The translations under genes and the position numbers were made by a program. The notes under the pieces were generated by a model. It was not told the DNA's origin. It saw only the letters and a list, made by a program, of their open reading frames with translations, and searched no databases. From the NCBI GenBank assembly GCA_027925225.1, contig AP027131.1, forward strand, positions 570,001 to 602,000: a stretch of DNA of 32,000 nucleotides, in the 5' to 3' direction. Positions within the stretch are counted from its first letter, which is position 1; every line of letters starts with the position of its first letter. Below, in pieces: positions 3,197 to 10,158 of this stretch. Origin of the DNA: Candidatus Saccharimonadota bacterium (GTDB lineage: Bacteria > Bacillota_I > Bacilli_A > Mycoplasmatales > Hepatoplasmataceae).

Positions 3197-3589
3197 TTAA
3201 CGTTTTGAAAATTGTGGAGCACGTCTTGCGGCTTTAAGACCGTATTTTTTACGTTCTTTTATTCTTGCATCTCTTGTAACTAAACCTTTTTCCTTTAAAG
3301 GTTTTTTGTAGTCATTAGAAGCTTCTAATAACGCTTTTACAATTCCATGTTTTAAGGCACCAGCTTGACCAGAAAATCCTCCACCTTTTATGTTAGCAGT
3401 AATAAGAAAATCATTTTCTGTATTAGTAATAACTAATCCCATTCTTGATTCTTGAATAAGAGTTTTATAAGGAAAATAGTCATCAATTTCTCTCCCATTG
3501 ATCACAATTTTACTATCTTTTTTATTTTTTACAGGTTTTAATATTACTCTTGCAATTGAAGATTTTCTTTTTCCTGTTCCTGTATACAT
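3197..3589 (-). CDS. rpsI: 30S ribosomal protein S9
   Basis: The track ORF is intact. It starts GTGKRKSSIARV and ends ARRAPQFSKR, with a TAA stop. Confidence 0.95.
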   Translation of the reverse strand: MYTGTGKRKSSIARVILKPVKNKKDSKIVINGREIDDYFPYKTLIQESRMGLVITNTENDFLITANIKGGGFSGQAGALKHGIVKALLEASNDYKKPLKEKGLVTRDARIKERKKYGLKAARRAPQFSKR

Positions 3590-3622
3590 ACTTCTTATTA
3601 CTCCGCTTCTAATTATATCAAT

Positions 3623-4060
3623 TTATTTAATCTTTAATTCTAGCTTTTCTGGTTTTTGAGCAGAATGTTTATGATTTTCATCAGCATAAAGAAAAAGCTT
3701 TTTAATTTGTTTTCTTCCAAGCTTATTATGTGGAAGCATTCCCCAAATAGATTTATAAACTAATTCATTTGGATATTTTTCTATCATTGTTTTTGCACTT
3801 CTTTTTCTTAATCCACCAGGATAACCTGAATGATTATAATAAAATTTATCATTAAGTTTATTACCTGTTAATTTAACATCTTTTGAATTTATGATAATCA
3901 CAAAATCACCATGATCTTCATGGGGAGTAAATGATGCTTTATTCTTTCCTCTTAAAATAGATGCAATCTCAGTTGACATACGGCCAAGCACTAAATCCTT
4001 AGCGTCAACTAAGTATCATTTTCTCTCTATATTATCAAAAGCCATTCTTGTTTGTCTCAT
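3623..4060 (-). CDS. rplM: 50S ribosomal protein L13
   Basis: Track ORF 3623..3991 extends upstream through one TGA to ATG 4060..4058. The N-terminus is MRQTRMAFDNIERKWYLVDAKDLVLGRM, where the conserved KWY Trp is encoded by TGA. AAGGG lies upstream. Confidence 0.93.
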
Positions 4061-4145: not shown

Positions 4146-4496
4146 ATGGGAACAATAAGATTAAAATCAGAATTAGAGAAAAAATTATATGACATTGTTT
4201 ACATAAGTCATGAAGACCTTAAAATAAAAGTTGATAAAAATTTAAAACAAGATAGACCATGTATTATTGTAAAAATTGATAAAAAGAAAGAATTATATTA
4301 TGTACTTTTATTAACAAGCAAAAAAAGATTTGATATAAGACAAATAAAAATTGAAGAACAAGGAAATTATATTAATCTTACAAATCTTTATGTTCTTTCA
4401 AAAAATATAATTAATTATGCAGATGAGACAGATTTTTCTTTAAATAATTCAGTAATAAGGGAAGTTAAAAATTATATAAACAAATTAAATTTATAA
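4146..4496 (+). CDS. Hypothetical 116-aa protein, PemK/MazF-like pattern (tentative)
   Basis: Intact ORF. The pattern YDIVYIS..(17)..DRPCIIVK..(7)..YYVLLLTSKK followed by YINLTNLYVLSKNII matches, by eye, the GDIvwv / RPvlVv / vivvPiTs / vdqirtidk succession of the PemK/MazF family. No search was done. Confidence 0.4.
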   Translation: MGTIRLKSELEKKLYDIVYISHEDLKIKVDKNLKQDRPCIIVKIDKKKELYYVLLLTSKKRFDIRQIKIEEQGNYINLTNLYVLSKNIINYADETDFSLNNSVIREVKNYINKLNL

Positions 4497-4506
4497 TTTT
4501 AAAAAT

Positions 4507-5334
4507 ATGAATGAAAAAAGTGATGTAATAAAAAGATTAAGAACTTATACAATTTTTGATTACATAAATCCAACAGTAAAAATTATTTCATTTTTATTTT
4601 TTATTGCAATTGTTTTTGTAGCTCAAAATATTTCACAATTACTTATTGTTCTTGGTGTTTCAGTTTTATTTCTTACTTTTATAAGAGTTAATTTTAAATA
4701 TTATTTAAAACCTTTAATTTGAATATTGATATTTTCTCCGTTTCTAATTTTCTTTAATATGATTGTTATAGAAGGAGACAGTGAACCAATATCAAGTGCT
4801 TTAGGAGGAATTTATACAGAAAGTTTTATTATTTCTGCACAAATAATACTTAAGATTTATTTATTGATTCTTGTTTCTTCTGTTCTCATTTTGAGTTTAA
4901 GTGAAACTGAACTTACAAATGGATTTGAAAAATTAATTAGTCCATTGAAATATATTAAAATCCCAACACAAGAAATAGCACTTATTATTTCAATTGCAAT
5001 AAGATATATTCCCCTTTTTCTTTATGAGACAAAATTAATATTAGAAGCACAAAGTTCAAGAGGAATAGATTTTTATTCAGGAAATACAAAAACAAAAATA
5101 ATTGCTTTAAAAAATTCTTTAAATCCTCTTATTGTAAATTCTTTTATAAAAGCAAAAGAATTATCAGTTGCTATGTCTGTAAGAGGATATAAAATAGGAA
5201 TGAAAAGAACAAAATATGAAATTTATAAATTTAAATATAAGGAATTATTATTTTTAAGTTTTTTTGTTTTATTTTTAGTGGGAACAATTTTAATGAATGT
5301 ATATGATGTTTCATTTTTAAATAATGGATGATAA
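4507..5334 (+). CDS. ecfT: Energy-coupling factor transporter transmembrane subunit EcfT (CbiQ family)
   Basis: Track ORFs 4507..4722 and 4726..5331 are joined in frame by TGA. The terminal TGA is also read as Trp, and the true stop is TAA 5332..5334. The protein is multi-pass hydrophobic with the two Ala-Arg-Gly-type coupling motifs AQSSRG and AMSVRGY. Confidence 0.85.
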
Positions 5335-5336
5335 AG

Positions 5337-5370
5337 AAAAAAGTAATTCTAAAAGAATTACTTTTTTATT
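5337..5370 (+). terminator. Rho-independent terminator after ecfT
   Basis: AAAAAAGTAATTC (5337..5349) pairs with GAATTACTTTTTT (5355..5367) around loop TAAAA. The stem runs into a T-tract and begins 3 nt after the ecfT stop. Confidence 0.65.
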
Positions 5371-5508
5371 AATACATAATTTACAACAACGCTAAAATAT
5401 TTCCAATAAAATACCTTGCACTGACAATTTGTATCTTTCCACATACCTACATATGCTTCAAAAATATTATACATAAAAAAAAATTTAATATTATTCATTT
5501 ATTTTCAC

Positions 5509-5514
5509 TATAAT
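5509..5514 (+). promoter_or_regulatory. Candidate -10 box TATAAT, 8 nt upstream of the 5523 ATG (possible leaderless transcript)
   Basis: A perfect TATAAT is read at 5509..5514. There is no SD between it and the ATG. TATAAT-like strings are frequent in DNA this AT-rich, so support is weak. Confidence 0.3.
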
Positions 5515-5522
5515 GCTTTTAT

Positions 5523-6551
5523 ATGAAAAATATTAATGAAAATAAAGAAAAAAATAAATTATTTGAAAACTTTTATAAAAAAAATTTTAATGAATTCTTA
5601 AATAATATAAACTACTTAAAAACTTTTTATAAGGAAATAAAGAAATATAAATTAACAAAAAAACATGATATATTAAATTTTATTAATCAAAAAGAATTTA
5701 ATAAAACTGAAATTAAAAATAATAATTTTAAATTGCTTATTTTAAAAAATAAAGAAGAATTTTTTGATCTTTTCTTATTTACAATTATTGTGAAATTAGG
5801 AGAAATAAATCCTATTAGACTTTTAATTTATTTTGAGCAGTTTCCAAATTACTTAAATGAAAAAAATATTTTAAATAATAAAATTAATGAAAAATTAGTA
5901 TTGTTAGATTCTCAAATAGAAAATTTAAATGAAAAAACATCTTCAATAATGTATGAATATATTTTTTCATATGAAAAATATTTAACAAAATTAATTAGAA
6001 AAAAATGCATTAATGAAAATTTAAATATTTTAGAATTAAATATTAAAAAAAAATGGTTTGTAAATAAAAGATTAGAAAATATAGAAAAAAAAATTAATCC
6101 AATACTTTCTCCTGAATTAAAAAATTTAGAAATTTTAAATTTTTTGTCATTTAATGAGAAAGATGAAATTCTAAACTTTTTATGAAATGAAAAATACATA
6201 AATATAGATGATTTAGTAAAAGAAAATTTCATAAATAAAGAACAAGTTTCTTATTTAAGAAAAAAAGGAAAAAATGATCAAAATATTTTTGATCACTTCA
6301 AACAATGTTTAGTAAAAGTGAAAGACTATAGAAATAAAATATCTCATTTAGAAAATTTTATTCTTTTGAAAAAAGATATAAATGAGCTAATATCTTTTTT
6401 TAAAGATCAATATTACTTATTAAGAAATAATTTTACTATTGAAACTCTTTATAAAGTAAAAATATTATTTTTAAAAAATAATTTTATAAATAAAGAAGAA
6501 ATTTTAAAAGAACACTACAAAAATTTATTAAGCTTTAAAATTGAATTTTAA
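5523..6551 (+). CDS. Hypothetical 342-aa protein with C-terminal RNxxxH (Rx4H, HEPN-like) motif
   Basis: Track ORFs 5523..6185 and 6318..6551 are in the same frame. The join (6183..6317) contains one TGA and no TAA/TAG. Motif DYRNKISHLENF lies at aa 268-279. I recognise no other family signature. Confidence 0.7.
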
Positions 6552-6557
6552 TTAAAA

Positions 6558-7283
6558 ATGAAATATCTAATAAAAATCAGTTATGATGGAAAATATTTTT
6601 ATGGTTGAAATAAACAACCAAATTTATATACAATTAATCAGTTTTTAGAAGACTCTTTTAAAAAGGAATTGATTAATGTAAAAATTAAAGCATCTGGAAG
6701 AACTGATAAATTTGTTCACGCAATTAATCAAGTATGTGATATTGAAGTTAATAAAAAAATAAGAAAAAAAGATATTATTAAAATTAACAAAGAATTAAAT
6801 AAAAAAATAAGAATAAAAAAAGTAAAAAAAGTAAAAAATGAATTTTCTGCAAGATTTGATTTAAGAAGTAAAACATATCTTTATAAAATAAGTAATGATT
6901 TCAAAAAAAAGAAAAGAAAAGATGAAAATTATTATTTAAATATTTTTAAAGAAATAAATTTAAAAAAAATGAATGAAGATGCAAAGAAATTTATAGGCGA
7001 AAAAGATTTTTCCTCTTTTACTTCAAAAAGTAATTATTATTCTTACATTAGAAAAATAAATTACATAAAAATAAAAAAAAGAAGAAAAATAATTTATATA
7101 GAAATAAATGGAAATGGTTTTTTAAGATACATGATAAGACATATAGTAGGATCTCTTATTGCAAAAAATTTTAATAAATATAATGAGGAAAAATTCAATG
7201 ATTTATTTTTAAACCCAAAAAGAGGAAAAAATATATTTAAAGTAACAGGAAAAGCTTTGTATTTAAAAAATGTAAAATATTAA
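6558..7283 (+). CDS. truA: tRNA pseudouridine(38-40) synthase TruA
   Basis: ATG 6558 is in frame with track ORF 6669..7283 through one TGA. The N-terminus is MKYLIKISYDGKYFYGWNKQP, and the catalytic-Asp motif is ASGRTDKFVHA. Confidence 0.85.
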
Positions 7284-7288
7284 AAAAA

Positions 7289-7984
7289 TTAATTTTTTAA
7301 TTTTTCTATTTCAAAATGATTTGAAAAACTGTTTTTAAATTTAAGATCATGGGTGATTATTAAAATTGTTGTCTTAAAATTTTTATTTAATTCTTTTATA
7401 AAATTTGTAAATTCTTTTTTTGTAAGTACATCAAGTCCTGCTGTTGGTTCGTCTAAAATTAAAATATCAGTAGGTGTAAGTAATAAACAACCTACTATCA
7501 ATTTTTTCTTTTCTCCGCCCGAAAGTTTATAAGGTGATTTGTTTTTATATTCTTTAGGAAAATTTAGCAAATTAAAAAGATAATCAACTTTTTCATCAAT
7601 AAACTCCTTTTTTTCTTCTTGGGTTTTTTTTTCTTTTTTAAAATATTGGCTAAAAGAAAAAGCTATTTCATCTCTTATTGTTGATTTAAAAATTTGTAAA
7701 TTTATATCTTGAAAAACTATTTTTACTTTATTCCTTATTTCTCTTAATTTTCTTTTTTTTGTTTTTTTATCATATATTAAATTATCAAATTTTATATAAC
7801 CTGAAGTCGGTTTAATAAAAGCAGAAAGCAAAAGTGCAAATGTTGATTTCCCAGAACCATTTTCTCCATATATTACAGTTATTTCATTTTCTTTTAATTT
7901 AAAATTAAAATTCTTAAAAATAATATGACTATTTTCTTTATCTATTTTAAATTCTTTTGTAACATTAAAAAATTCTACTTTCAT
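7289..7984 (-). CDS. ecfA2: ECF transporter ATPase subunit (second of pair)
   Basis: Walker A GENGSGKST, Q-loop VFQD, signature LSGGEKKK, Walker B ILILDEPTAGLD, H-loop ITHDL. TAA stop. 231 aa. Confidence 0.85.
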   Translation of the reverse strand: MKVEFFNVTKEFKIDKENSHIIFKNFNFKLKENEITVIYGENGSGKSTFALLLSAFIKPTSGYIKFDNLIYDKKTKKRKLREIRNKVKIVFQDINLQIFKSTIRDEIAFSFSQYFKKEKKTQEEKKEFIDEKVDYLFNLLNFPKEYKNKSPYKLSGGEKKKLIVGCLLLTPTDILILDEPTAGLDVLTKKEFTNFIKELNKNFKTTILIITHDLKFKNSFSNHFEIEKLKN

Positions 7985-7987
7985 AAT

Positions 7988-8677
7988 TTAAATTAATTGA
8001 TATTTTTTTAAAATATCATTAGTTAATTGTTCTTTATTTAAAGATTCAATTATTGTATTATCCTTCATAATAAATACTTTTTCAGCAAATCTAATTTCTT
8101 TTAAATTATGTGTAATATAAATAATTGTTTTCCCTTCTTCTTTTAATTTTTTAATAATAGAAAAAACTATTTTAAAATATTTTTCATCAAGCATTGAAGT
8201 AATTTCATCAAAAATATAAAAATCAAAATCCATTATTAATATAGAAGCCAAAGCAACCAGTTGTCTTTCCCCGCCCGAAAGATTATTAACATTTTTTTCT
8301 TTTAATTTTAAAATATTTAATTTTTCTAAAATTTTATTAATTTTGCCTTCCATTTTTTGTTGAGAAATATTTAAATTTTCTAAACCAAAAGCAATATCAT
8401 TTTTTACAATTGAAGAAACAAATTGATTTTCTGGTCTTTGAAAAACAATTCCACATTTTTTCCCTAAAATATAGTTTGATTTTACTAATTCATTATTATA
8501 AAAATAATTTCCTTCATAATTAGAAATAACTCCAGCAAGTAATAATGCTAATTGTGATTTCCCAGAACCATTTAAACCGACTATACTAATATAGTCGCCT
8601 TTTTTTATTTCAATATTAATATTTTTTAATATCTTTTCGTTCTCTATTGAATAACTAACATTTTCTAATTTAATCAT
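7988..8677 (-). CDS. ecfA1: ECF transporter ATPase subunit (first of pair)
   Basis: Walker A GLNGSGKSQ, Q-loop VFQRPENQ, signature LSGGERQL, Walker B FYIFDEITSMLD, H-loop ITHNL. TAA stop. 229 aa. Confidence 0.85.
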   Translation of the reverse strand: MIKLENVSYSIENEKILKNINIEIKKGDYISIVGLNGSGKSQLALLLAGVISNYEGNYFYNNELVKSNYILGKKCGIVFQRPENQFVSSIVKNDIAFGLENLNISQQKMEGKINKILEKLNILKLKEKNVNNLSGGERQLVALASILIMDFDFYIFDEITSMLDEKYFKIVFSIIKKLKEEGKTIIYITHNLKEIRFAEKVFIMKDNTIIESLNKEQLTNDILKKYQLI

Positions 8678-8826
8678 TTAATACCAAAAAATAATTATAT
8701 AGTTTAATTAAACAAAAATTTATAAGTAAAAAACTATTAAATTTAAAATAAAAAATTTAATAATTTATATGTTAATAAATATACATCATTAAACTGGTTA
8801 TATAATTTTAAAAGACAAGGTTATTT

Positions 8827-10158
8827 ATGGAAGAACAATTTGAAAATTATAAAGAGGGATTTTTGGATAATTTAAAAACCCTTATATCATTTAAATCTTA
8901 TTTAAAAAAAATAAATAATTACCCGAACAAAGAACAGTTAAATGCACTTAAATTTATGATAAATCTTGGTGAAAAAGAAGGATTTAAAACATATTTTCAT
9001 CCAAAAGGATATTATGGATATATTGAATATGGAAAAGGCAAAAAAATGGTTGGCATACTTGGACATATTGATGTAGTAGATCCAGGTGATTTAAAAAAAT
9101 GAAAAAGCAATCCTTTTGAAATGAAAATAGAAGGAAATTATCTTATCGGAAGAGGGACAATAGATGATAAAGGACCAATGATGCTTTCTTTCTATGTTTT
9201 AAAGGCATTAAAGGATTCTAAAATTAAATTAAACAAAAGAATAAGACTTATTTTAGGAACTGATGAAGAAACTCTTTGAAGAGGAATAAATAAATACATA
9301 GAAAATGAAGAAAAACCAGAAATGGGATTTTCTCCAGATGCTACTTTTCCAGCAATTTATGGCGAAAAGGGTTTATTACAATGAAAAGTAGAAGAAAAAT
9401 TAAATAATCCTAATTTTAAAATATACGGAGGTTCAAGTGTTAATGCCGTTCCTGATAAAGCAATCTATCAAGGAGATAATATTAAAAAAATAGAAGAAAA
9501 TATTAAAAAATATGATTTTGAATATAAAAAAATAGGAAAAAATGAAATTGAATTGATTGGAAAATCAGAACATGCAATGTTAGCAGATAAAGGAAAAAAT
9601 GCTATTACAAGATTATGTATATGTGTAAATGAATTTGTTGATTCTAAGTTAATAAACTTTATTGCAAACGAAGTTGATTTAGAAGCAAAAGGGAAAAAAC
9701 TTTTTGATAAGGAAATAAAAGACAAAGAAACAGGATCGATTACTTTAAATATTGGAAAATTGGGATTTAAAAATAATATATTAACTGCATGATTTGACAA
9801 TAGACTTCCTATTACAATAACCTTAAAAGAAATTGAAAAATTAATTACTGAAAAATTAAAAAAATATAATCTTAAATATGAAAGATTTGATTGACTAAAA
9901 TCAATTTATGCCGATAAAGATTCTTTTGTAATTAAAACACTAATGAATTCTTATAAAAAAATAACAAATAAAAATGATAAGCCTTATATTTCTGGAGGTG
10001 CAACATTTGCAAGATCTATGGATAATATTTTTGCATTTGGACCTTTTGATGATTCTGAAATAAATTTAGAACATCAACCCAATGAAAAAATAAATATTAA
10101 ATTGTTTGAGAAAGCATTTTATATTTACGTTGATGCTTTAAAAGATTTAGCAAAATAA
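8827..10158 (+). CDS. pepV: M20-family dipeptidase, PepV/Sapep-like
   Basis: Track ORFs 8827..9102, 9553..9792 and 9943..10158 are in one frame. I translated the joins and they contain only TGA. Motifs: GHIDVVDPG, GRGTIDDKGP, GTDEET, SPDATFPAIYGEKG. 443 aa. Confidence 0.8.

Follow-up and report, generated by a model that had tools for sequence, protein, structure and literature searches.

A hypervariable, Hepatoplasmataceae-restricted protein family with an invariant R-N-x3-H motif: a candidate HEPN-like endoribonuclease gene between ecfT and truA

We analysed a window of 32,000 nucleotides (nt) from Candidatus Hepatoplasma vulgare, a Mollicute that lives in symbiosis with the isopod Armadillidium vulgare (PMC10928387), in which a gene for a protein of 342 amino acids (aa) lies between ecfT and truA. 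Positions are window positions unless another locus is named. The gene belongs to a protein family that is patchily distributed and diverges fast; every member that covers the region carries the same R-N-x3-H motif, and a short conserved element of 28 nt adjoins the gene here and at other loci. The reading that we favour, and regard as evenly balanced between right and wrong, is that the protein may be a stand-alone, very divergent HEPN-like endoribonuclease, which would serve as a toxin or abortive-infection (Abi)-type effector of a mobile, hypervariable and lineage-restricted family. The existing annotation calls the gene no more than hypothetical; should the HEPN reading be true, the gene would represent a new and very divergent form in a known superfamily, with an unusual element beside it, and if that reading is wrong, an unexplained hypervariable family would remain.

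The window has a G+C content of 23.8% and uses TGA for Trp. Read with table 11, the gene falls into two pieces, 5523..6185 (220 aa) and 6318..6551, while table 4 gives a single open reading frame (ORF), as a first-pass annotation of this DNA had proposed. A Trp stands at the aligned position in most homologs, so the read-through of the TGA is correct. The features of the gene to which we refer below are the following.

5523..6551, plus strand: ORF of 342 aa, code 4 (HPAVJP_4950), of a family restricted to Hepatoplasmataceae and all-helical in the structural model
5973..5975, plus strand: codon of Glu151 in the block YIFS[FY]EK, invariant in 8/8 sequences that cover it
6183..6185, plus strand: TGA codon read as Trp221
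6330..6347, plus strand: R270-N-K-I-S-H275, candidate HEPN catalytic motif and the sole Rx4-6H match in the protein

At 100% identity, the product matches HPAVJP_4950, which is recorded as a "hypothetical protein" of Candidatus Hepatoplasma vulgare. We estimate the chance of a 342-codon open frame in DNA of 24% GC at about 1e-11, and an in-frame TAA at 5511 rules out an earlier start. The protein is basic and rich in Lys and Asn, and our recount agrees with the 6 Arg and 4 His given before. Two other assignments were considered and rejected: a surface lipoprotein or antigenic-variation protein (in view of the hydrophilic N-terminus and the lack of both signal peptide and lipobox) and a tyrosine recombinase (no profile match, and no invariant Tyr even in the C-terminal Tyr column).

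The ORF had initially been called an orphan, a description that did not survive an exhaustive phmmer search over 1.84 billion representatives, which found eight relatives (E 4e-36 to 7e-4). A word-indexed homolog search, in which low-complexity words dominate, returned only the protein itself and one paralog. All traceable relatives come from Hepatoplasmataceae, where they occupy at least four unrelated loci. Members are 30-47% identical overall, and intact frames of 310-502 codons are kept in genomes of 23-25% GC. The copies outside the ecfT-truA site are listed here, with positions in their own loci.

L002, region 7476-9334: copy in H. crinochetorum Tokyo2021, directly after rplO, at a synteny break
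L004: copy in H. scabrum, between uvrA and uvrB
L003 and L005: copies in two further relatives, between uvrA and uvrB
L005, 5151-6659: family member P0006, 502 aa, with the C-terminal module duplicated internally
L024, 5435-6525: second H. scabrum copy (AP027133), between a Ser/Thr kinase gene and an RCC1-repeat gene
L025: copy on a metagenome contig of the Joint Genome Institute (JGI)
HPAVJP_4350: paralog elsewhere in the H. vulgare genome

The L024 copy is split into ORFs of 137 and 174 aa by a frameshift in an A-run just after YIFSFEK, and its conserved Trp is replaced by Gln. The H. scabrum assembly is Illumina-only, so the frameshift is probably real, and the copy is either a pseudogene or a homopolymer phase-variable gene. 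Scans of JGI metagenomes and IMG/VR with the motif pattern gave no confirmed relative, a contig scan with ecfT matched only a Lachnospiraceae locus, and the full-length family alignment was too variable for pattern extraction. HEPN proteins in Hepatoplasma are not mentioned in any paper that we found.

At the L002 locus, two observations concern the surroundings of the gene. In the window rplO is followed by secY-adk-map (16163 down to 13346, minus strand), and L002 has the family gene at this place, which is a break in the synteny of the ribosomal-protein operon. A gene with Pfam matches to Anti-Pycsar_Apyc1 and Lactamase_B lies at 11693-12352 of L002, 2.6 kb downstream of the family gene.

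The block [YFL]RNxISHL is the most conserved of the family. With 6 Arg and 4 His, an R-x4-6-H arises in one such sequence with a chance of about 0.2, by simple arithmetic. The motif in a single sequence is therefore weak, and the evidence is its invariance in every homolog that covers it. The C-terminal half has 13 invariant columns, and six of these are the R, N, I, S, H and L of the block; they are invariant in 7/7 aligned homologs and in the L024 and L025 copies as well, that is, in nine of nine copies from at least three species. Conservation of R270 and H275 had been proposed as a check of the motif, and both residues, like N271 and S274, are invariant wherever the motif is covered. Member P0006 is instructive in this respect. 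The last copy of its duplicated module keeps YRNKISHLENLII, and the first reads YINKITKITNLII, with R and H lost and the hydrophobic scaffold kept; loss of the motif was seen only in this redundant first half. As far as it can be read from the sequence, this is the pattern expected for catalytic residues that have become redundant in a pseudo-dimer, and not for structural residues.

In the HEPN survey of Anantharaman et al. 2013 (PMC3710099), the Rx4-6H motif is described at the end of a helix or the start of a loop, with a polar N, D or H after the R, and with a second conserved acidic residue upstream in HEPN helix-2, typically Ex3[KR], near the motif. The family has Rx4H with the polar N271 after R270. 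AlphaFold run without an alignment gave a predicted local distance difference test score (pLDDT) of 38.6; with an alignment of nine sequences AlphaFold2 (AF2) reached a pLDDT of 75 and a predicted template modelling score of 0.67, residues 120-340 being mostly at 80-95. In the AF2 model, which is entirely helical, the motif closes helix 252-274 at its C-terminus and leads into loop 275-282, after which helix 283-299 begins; the pLDDT is 83-94 in the blocks next to the motif and 65 in block 271-280. Thus the motif would stand at a helix end and loop start, as in HEPN proteins, in a model and not in a solved structure. The upstream acidic residue may correspond to Glu151, which the model places in the long helix 120-164, and about 85 residues of short helices, a large helical insert, separate its helix from the motif. 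The likeness to the HEPN superfamily extends over the motif, its predicted placement, the insert, and a genomic behaviour typical of conflict systems, with Glu151 as a candidate for the conserved acidic residue. The case for membership of the wider HEPN superfamily is made by the motif, its placement in the model and the context, and we regard the family as a likely new group of HEPN-like conflict genes.

This genomic behaviour is best seen at the uvrA/uvrB site, where the copies are syntenic and the family gene can be cleanly compared with its flanks. The values for L003 against L005, with synonymous (dS) and nonsynonymous (dN) divergence, are as follows.

UvrA, N-terminal part (flank): protein identity 96%, dS 0.27, dN 0.02
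74-aa membrane protein (flank): protein identity 96%, dS 0.18, dN 0.02
Family protein: identity 47%, dS 0.62, dN 0.41

The dN of the family gene is above the neutral divergence of the flanks, and its dS is two to three times theirs. Such an excess means that old alleles are swapped in by cassette or allele replacement, that diversifying selection is strong, or both; simple drift is insufficient. The family also shows other traits of the conflict type: close relatives differ in whether they have the gene, it occupies several insertion sites, and a paralog, a pseudogene and a duplicated form occur. Judged from these sequence comparisons, the family has the profile of a conflict gene (defence, toxin or addiction) and not that of a housekeeping or structural gene. 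The genome carries CRISPR-Cas9 and restriction-modification (PMC10928387), and the presence of these other defence systems implies that phage or mobile-element pressure exists.

The gene is present in one and absent from another close relative at the site between ecfT and truA. Syntenic loci were located through TruA homologs, and the following two features of the window come into play besides the ORF.

5337..5367, plus strand: intrinsic-terminator-like hairpin (inverted repeat I16), a 14-bp stem with a 3-nt loop, then a U-run UUUUUUAUU
5485..5514, plus strand: promoter-like TTAATA-18 nt-TATAAT, 10/12 positions matched in a consensus scan

A close relative represented by a Logan contig, L006 (EcfT 88% and TruA 82% identical to those of the window), has the same gene order: rpsI and rplM on the minus strand, a 117-aa ORF, ecfT and truA on the plus strand, ecfA2 and ecfA1 on the minus strand, and an M20 peptidase gene. 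Its ecfT-truA gap is 115 nt and contains no ORF, i.e. the site is empty. In Ca. H. crinochetorum and Ca. H. scabrum the genes form an ecfA1-ecfA2-ecfT-truA-rplM-rpsI operon, with an ecfT-truA gap of 14-17 nt. The earlier description of the gene as inserted between ecfT and truA is thus confirmed by the empty site in L006 and by the ancestral adjacency in two other species. By comparison of these sequences, about 1.1 kb has been either gained in the H. vulgare lineage or lost in its relative L006.

The extra segment contains the terminator hairpin, a spacer, the promoter-like site and the ORF. Upstream, ecfT ends at 5334 and is followed by the hairpin (dG -12.2 kcal/mol, z -4.6, with 0/200 shuffles as stable), which is missing from L006. 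Downstream, the stop codon of the ORF (6549-6551) is separated by 6 nt from the truA ATG at 6558. The insertion has therefore left truA 6 nt behind the new gene and behind the terminator that follows ecfT. The -10 box TATAAT at 5509-5514 ends 8 nt before the ATG of the ORF, and no Shine-Dalgarno-like sequence precedes the start; a leaderless or near-leaderless mRNA is possible. In all these respects (terminator after ecfT, distance of the TATAAT, lack of a Shine-Dalgarno sequence, gap to truA) every position agrees with the first-pass annotation. The scan found 19 promoter-like sites against 17.6 expected, which is no enrichment in this AT-rich region, and TTAATA-18-TATAAT is a pattern match and no evidence of function. 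Between the window and the empty site the spacers have diverged so far that the breakpoints of the insertion cannot be placed, and a search for terminal repeats or target-site duplications around it found only AT-rich noise.

No conserved gene of protein size was found as a partner adjoining the ORF. The sole small ORF nearby (46 aa, 5358..5498, minus strand) has no counterpart at the other family loci and is probably spurious, which leaves standing the earlier statement that no MNT-type or antitoxin-sized neighbour exists. Likewise, none of the family loci has a gene for MNT or another protein antitoxin next to the family member. The 46-aa frame overlaps the upstream spacer and the 28-nt element described below.

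The conserved element, which we call R1, adjoins the gene at four loci.

5436..5463, plus strand: R1 element UUUCCACAUACCUACAUAUGCUUCAAAA, which shares the strand of the ORF and precedes it by 60-87 nt; its 4-bp mini-hairpin is CAUA-N6-UAUG
L002, 7611-7638, 9094-9122 and 9133-9160, strand of the gene: one R1 copy 363 nt upstream of the gene and two downstream
L024, 6511-6538 and 6552-6579, strand of the gene: two R1 copies downstream, the first overlapping the stop codon
L025, 2063-2090 and 2104-2131, strand of the gene: two R1 copies downstream, the first overlapping the stop codon

The unit of about 28 nt (TTCACAYAACTAWATRTGCTWCA; consensus TTCACA[C/T]AACTA[A/T]AT[G/A]TGCT[A/T]CA) can form a 4-bp mini-hairpin CACA-N6-TGTG, with the compensatory variants CATA/TATG and TACA/TGTA. 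All R1 copies found adjoin family genes and share their strand. After the last unit a conserved tail, CAAAWWTATTATNACATA, follows at each R1 locus; in the window this tail, ATATTATACATA, extends to about 5476. A covariance model built only from the seven copies in L002, L024 and L025, i.e. from other genomes, was run over 133 kb of Hepatoplasmataceae DNA and identified window positions 5436-5463 with 27.5 bits and E 1.2e-4 (E 1.3e-6 in a local search). All other matches outside the training set had E > 0.2, and nhmmer matched the window element independently with E 0.029. The element is about 90% conserved, against 41-58% identity of the proteins. AbiD/F systems likewise conserve the RNA region beside the gene better than the gene itself (PMC13064643).

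A single R1 unit is clear in the window, on the upstream side of the ORF; what may be a second, degenerate unit was noticed by eye only. A promoter-like site (5369-5398) precedes the unit, and no terminator lies between the unit and the ORF. The R1 hairpin alone is thermodynamically weak and no better than shuffled sequence. At L002 each unit lies inside a longer stem, and the hairpin pair folds far better than shuffles (z = -4.7). The covariance model found no R1 in the uvrA/uvrB subfamily. It also lent no support to two ideas formed by eye, which were dropped: that a GC-richer element after the uvrA/uvrB copies, or a degenerate sequence in the empty site of L006, is an R1 homolog. Nine matches to the R1 pattern in public metagenomes, all on unrelated GC-richer contigs that do not carry the gene, are taken as chance. 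As for its role, the sequence would allow R1 to act as a cognate RNA partner of the protein, to mark a cassette boundary or serve in recombination, or to bind a protein, all of which are possible. A gene for a protein accompanied by short, tandemly repeated and conserved non-coding units on the same strand resembles the type III toxin-antitoxin (TA) systems ToxIN, AbiQ, AbiV and AbiF. The differences are that only one or two R1 units are present, mostly downstream of the gene, and that the family protein is unrelated to ToxN and AbiQ.

The GC-richer sequence mentioned above deserves a short description of its own. It is about 75 nt long and follows the stop codon at 2185-2262 of L003 and 6660-6740 of L005 (ATGGAYCGCCCA...CTTACCGCAACCTAAATATAGTATA), with a degenerate counterpart at 9084-9160 of L004. 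Between L003 and L005 its conservation far exceeds that of the proteins (47% identical), and it has no Rfam match; the whole of both loci is without an Rfam match at E <= 0.1. A ATGGATCG box also precedes the upstream R1 copy in L002.

If the favoured reading holds, the ORF product would be a metal-independent endoribonuclease that acts as a homodimer, its active site formed by two R270-N-x3-H275 motifs that the dimer brings together, with Glu151 assisting. It would act as a toxin or abortive-infection-type effector in intragenomic or anti-phage conflict. Family members would be gained, lost, duplicated, pseudogenised and allele-swapped at several intergenic sites, and one copy would have landed between ecfT and truA with a terminator-promoter stretch of its own. 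Some restraint of the toxin has to be assumed: an RNA could hold it in check, a leaderless mRNA could be poorly translated, or the toxin could become active only upon infection.

Several results weigh against this reading. No method that we applied found statistically significant similarity to any HEPN family. Scans with Pfam, PADLOC, NCBIfam and PHROGs of the protein and of each member gave nothing relevant (for Pfam, no match at E <= 10 for any of nine members), and sequence-profile searches of the PDB gave no match. A profile of 15 Abi_2 sequences (AbiF of phage phiC2, 13 plasmid proteins annotated as Abi family, and PbAbiF), all of which carry RNxx[A/C]H preceded by a P-x-W..E..FG-x-L helix, was compared with the family by hhalign. 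The motif helices were superposed (i..l..T.kYRN.ISH on l.sWl..l..vRN.CAH), with P = 0.1 for the full length and 0.044 for the C-terminal half, over only 17-23 columns. Global mode gave no alignment of note, and sub-optimal alignments were colinear and insignificant. The segments that flank the motif scored against Abi_2 equal to column shuffles or at most at z ~1.7; this last value belongs to the LSF region compared with the FG region of Abi_2 in local score, and is not significant. The Abi_2 hidden Markov model scores family members like shuffled sequences. Foldseek with the full model gave no match with E < 1 in the PDB and BFVD. PbAbiF (8vz6), the only solved Abi_2 structure, is among the 40 matches listed, out of 350,542 PDB chains, and has the best TM-scores among the matches listed (0.27/0.30 over 306 columns, E = 7.2). 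TM-scores of 0.27-0.30 lie in the range that is usually taken as random, and the match is suggestive only. The AF2 model itself rests on nine sequences only. Glu151 has a Lys at +1 and no Lys or Arg at +4, and so stands outside the Ex3[KR] context usual for HEPN proteins. The Rfam abiF motif RF03085 is absent by cmscan at E <= 10 from 4400-7400 and from the L002 locus, no other known RNA was detected with Rfam around the ORF or the homologs examined, and the upstream spacer of the window is unstructured and folds worse than shuffles. Finally, no antitoxin was identified, and since truA follows after only 6 nt, its transcription probably entails that of the gene, which is awkward for an unrestrained toxin.

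Two comparisons with other HEPN systems help to place the family. With HepT/DUF86-MNT and other type II HEPN TA systems it shares a candidate HEPN toxin with R-N-x3-H, and it differs from them in that no MNT or other protein antitoxin adjoins any family locus and in that the protein is much longer; HepT has about 130 aa. With Cas13 it shares the RNxxxH form of the catalytic motif. Cas13 effectors have two such motifs and roughly 800-1200 aa, whereas the protein has one motif in 342 aa and does not belong with them. Neither a CRISPR array nor a cas gene was found near the ORF, and no CRISPR repeat nearby reaches the Rfam threshold; the only CRISPR system of the H. vulgare genome is of type II-A (PMC10928387). 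The Cas13/Abi interpretation of the motif by the first-pass annotation has thus been upheld as regards the form of the motif and the conservation of R and H, while the assignment to Abi_2 is unproven and a link to Cas13 or CRISPR is absent; the Pfam profile and Foldseek checks that it had proposed, and hhalign as well, gave no significant HEPN or Abi_2 match.

A narrower version of the favoured reading, which we consider rather unlikely, is that the family is a true, highly diverged Abi_2 (AbiD/AbiD1/AbiF) and a type III TA system. The element at 5436-5463 would then be a small RNA that blocks the HEPN site by binding the dimer, as RCd22 does for AbiF of C. difficile and a non-coding RNA (ncRNA) for PbAbiF. 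Like Abi_2 (PF07751; PbAbiF; AbiFCd of C. difficile phi027/phiC2), the family consists of single-gene, predicted all-helical proteins of about 290-350 aa (342 aa here and 287-347 aa in the references, in keeping with the similarity in length noted before). They have one R-N-x-x-[A/S]-H about two thirds along, at the end of a long helix, and the motif takes the same form, YRNKI[A/S]H: YRNKISH here against YRNKIAH and YRNKSAH in enterococcal and lactococcal members, so that the RNxxxH form had rightly been called that of Abi_2, YRNKIAH being found in Enterococcus Abi_2. Both groups are patchily distributed, with more than one copy per genome, and in both the protein is less conserved than a short non-coding element that accompanies it, as in the AbiD/F comparison cited above (PMC13064643). 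In the window this element lies upstream of the ORF with a promoter-like site before it, and at other loci it occurs in tandem pairs, which recalls the two abiF motifs of RCd22 (PMC12373285). The best TM-score among the Foldseek matches listed is that of PbAbiF, and a weak N-terminal similarity (K.G.I...yy against rGl.I...YYR) is colinear and not significant. On the other side, the Abi_2 hallmarks YYR, E-x3-R, P-x-W..E..FG-x-L and H-x-R-L-W-N, found in all 15 references, are not present as such in the family, which has loosely similar blocks in the same order (K.G.I..F..yy, YIFS.EK, LSF.EK..ILK.LW). Outside the motif helix the similarity is not significant in sequence or profile, and when membership of Abi_2 was tested, the family could not be assigned to it by its sequences. 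The Rfam abiF RNA motif is undetected; the element lies downstream of the gene at three of four loci, and over the stop codon at two, whereas known AbiF ncRNAs lie upstream; its hairpin has 4 bp only and folds no better than shuffled sequence; and the uvrA/uvrB subfamily is without it by the covariance model.

The remaining explanations depart further from a ribonuclease. The protein could be a non-catalytic, lineage-specific nucleic-acid-binding protein (a regulator, or a nucleoid or RNA-binding factor), with the helix end RNxISHL as a binding surface. It might recognise the CACA-N6-TGTG element, and its fast evolution would reflect co-evolution with this site or relaxed constraint. We consider this improbable, although a basic, Lys/Asn-rich protein that is all-helical in the model, a short palindromic element beside the gene at four loci and always in the same orientation, and the lack of a significant nuclease-family match would all suit it, and inactive HEPN-like modules for binding or dimerisation are known, e.g. 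the HEPN domain of AbiA (PMC13064643). The invariant residues are those of the HEPN ribonuclease catalytic set (R, a polar N, H, and a small residue before the H), and they are lost only in the redundant duplicate of P0006; presence and absence, pseudogenisation and allele replacement fit a dispensable conflict gene better than a regulator, and the uvrA/uvrB subfamily has no R1 to be recognised. That gene and element together form a small selfish cassette, with the protein as a novel recombination or homing factor and the element as recombination site, seems quite improbable to us. It would account for the direct element copies that bracket the H. crinochetorum Tokyo2021 gene (one 363 nt upstream, two downstream), for the overlap with the stop codon at two loci, like attC in integron cassettes, for the several unrelated intergenic sites and the synteny break after rplO, and for alleles at one locus that are older than their flanks. 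However, the protein has no similarity to a recombinase, transposase or homing nuclease, the only candidate residue, in the C-terminal Tyr column, is not invariant, the element occurs at four loci only, and the window copy has neither target-site duplication nor terminal inverted repeats and carries the element on one side only. Least probable of all, and in our view very improbable, is that the motif arose by chance or is of structural importance only, in a gene that evolves fast and has no particular function or is decaying. The chance expectation for a single sequence, the one frameshifted copy and the low-complexity, AT-driven composition would agree with it; the invariance of the motif in nine of nine copies from at least three species at 30-47% overall identity, the long intact frames in AT-rich genomes, and the confident helical model from the family alignment argue against it.

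Should the protein be a toxin or defence ribonuclease, as we favour, these genomes would hold one more system of defence or addiction. Hepatoplasmataceae, gut symbionts of isopods, are uncultured and extremely reduced; the genome paper describes only restriction-modification and CRISPR-Cas9 as defences, with toxins seemingly not encoded (PMC10928387). Toxin-type genes would then persist and turn over even in 0.6-Mb genomes. The family was missed by every profile library tried, and may serve as a test case for the diversity of conflict systems overlooked in AT-rich, code-4 genomes. Through its association with R1 it provides a protein-RNA pair that lends itself to testing and may be related to the AbiF/Cas13 lineage; Cas13 is considered to have evolved from AbiF (cited in PMC12373285 and PMC13064643). 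The separation of truA from ecfT, and its placement behind the new gene, would be a small example of a selfish insertion that rewires a conserved operon. It is tempting to speculate, tentatively and with the odds against it, that the family and the CACA-N6-TGTG element form an undescribed two-part conflict module. In such a module a cognate mini-hairpin RNA, located on either flank of the gene, would control or be the target of an HEPN-like ribonuclease beyond profile detection, and the two would be exchanged as a cassette between alleles and loci, an AbiF-to-Cas13 intermediate in a 0.66-Mb Mollicute genome.

Some observations concern the genes around the insertion. The block of orf116, ecfT, the new ORF and truA (4146-8677 region) is inverted with respect to ecfA1/ecfA2 (7289-8677, minus strand) and rplM/rpsI (3197-4060, minus strand), while H. 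crinochetorum and H. scabrum have the whole series ecfA1-ecfA2-ecfT-truA-rplM-rpsI on a single strand. The window and L006 have the inversion in common, and it is thus older than the gain or loss of the ORF. The truA gene of the window (6558-7283) is named "tRNA pseudouridine synthase A 2" in one source, which suggests a second truA copy in the genome; if so, the cost of disturbing the truA operon of the window would be lower. Between rplM and ecfT, an ORF of 116 aa (4146-4496, plus strand) has a sub-threshold match to PemK/MazF (Pfam E 0.002, 18.7 bits with a cut-off of 23.1), and no antitoxin-sized gene adjoins it. It is absent from the ecf-truA loci of H. crinochetorum and H. scabrum. Its counterpart in L006 is only 48% identical, with dN/dS of about 0.9, against 0.15-0.2 for ecfT and truA, and its sequence makes it a possible second toxin-like, fast-evolving gene in this neighbourhood.

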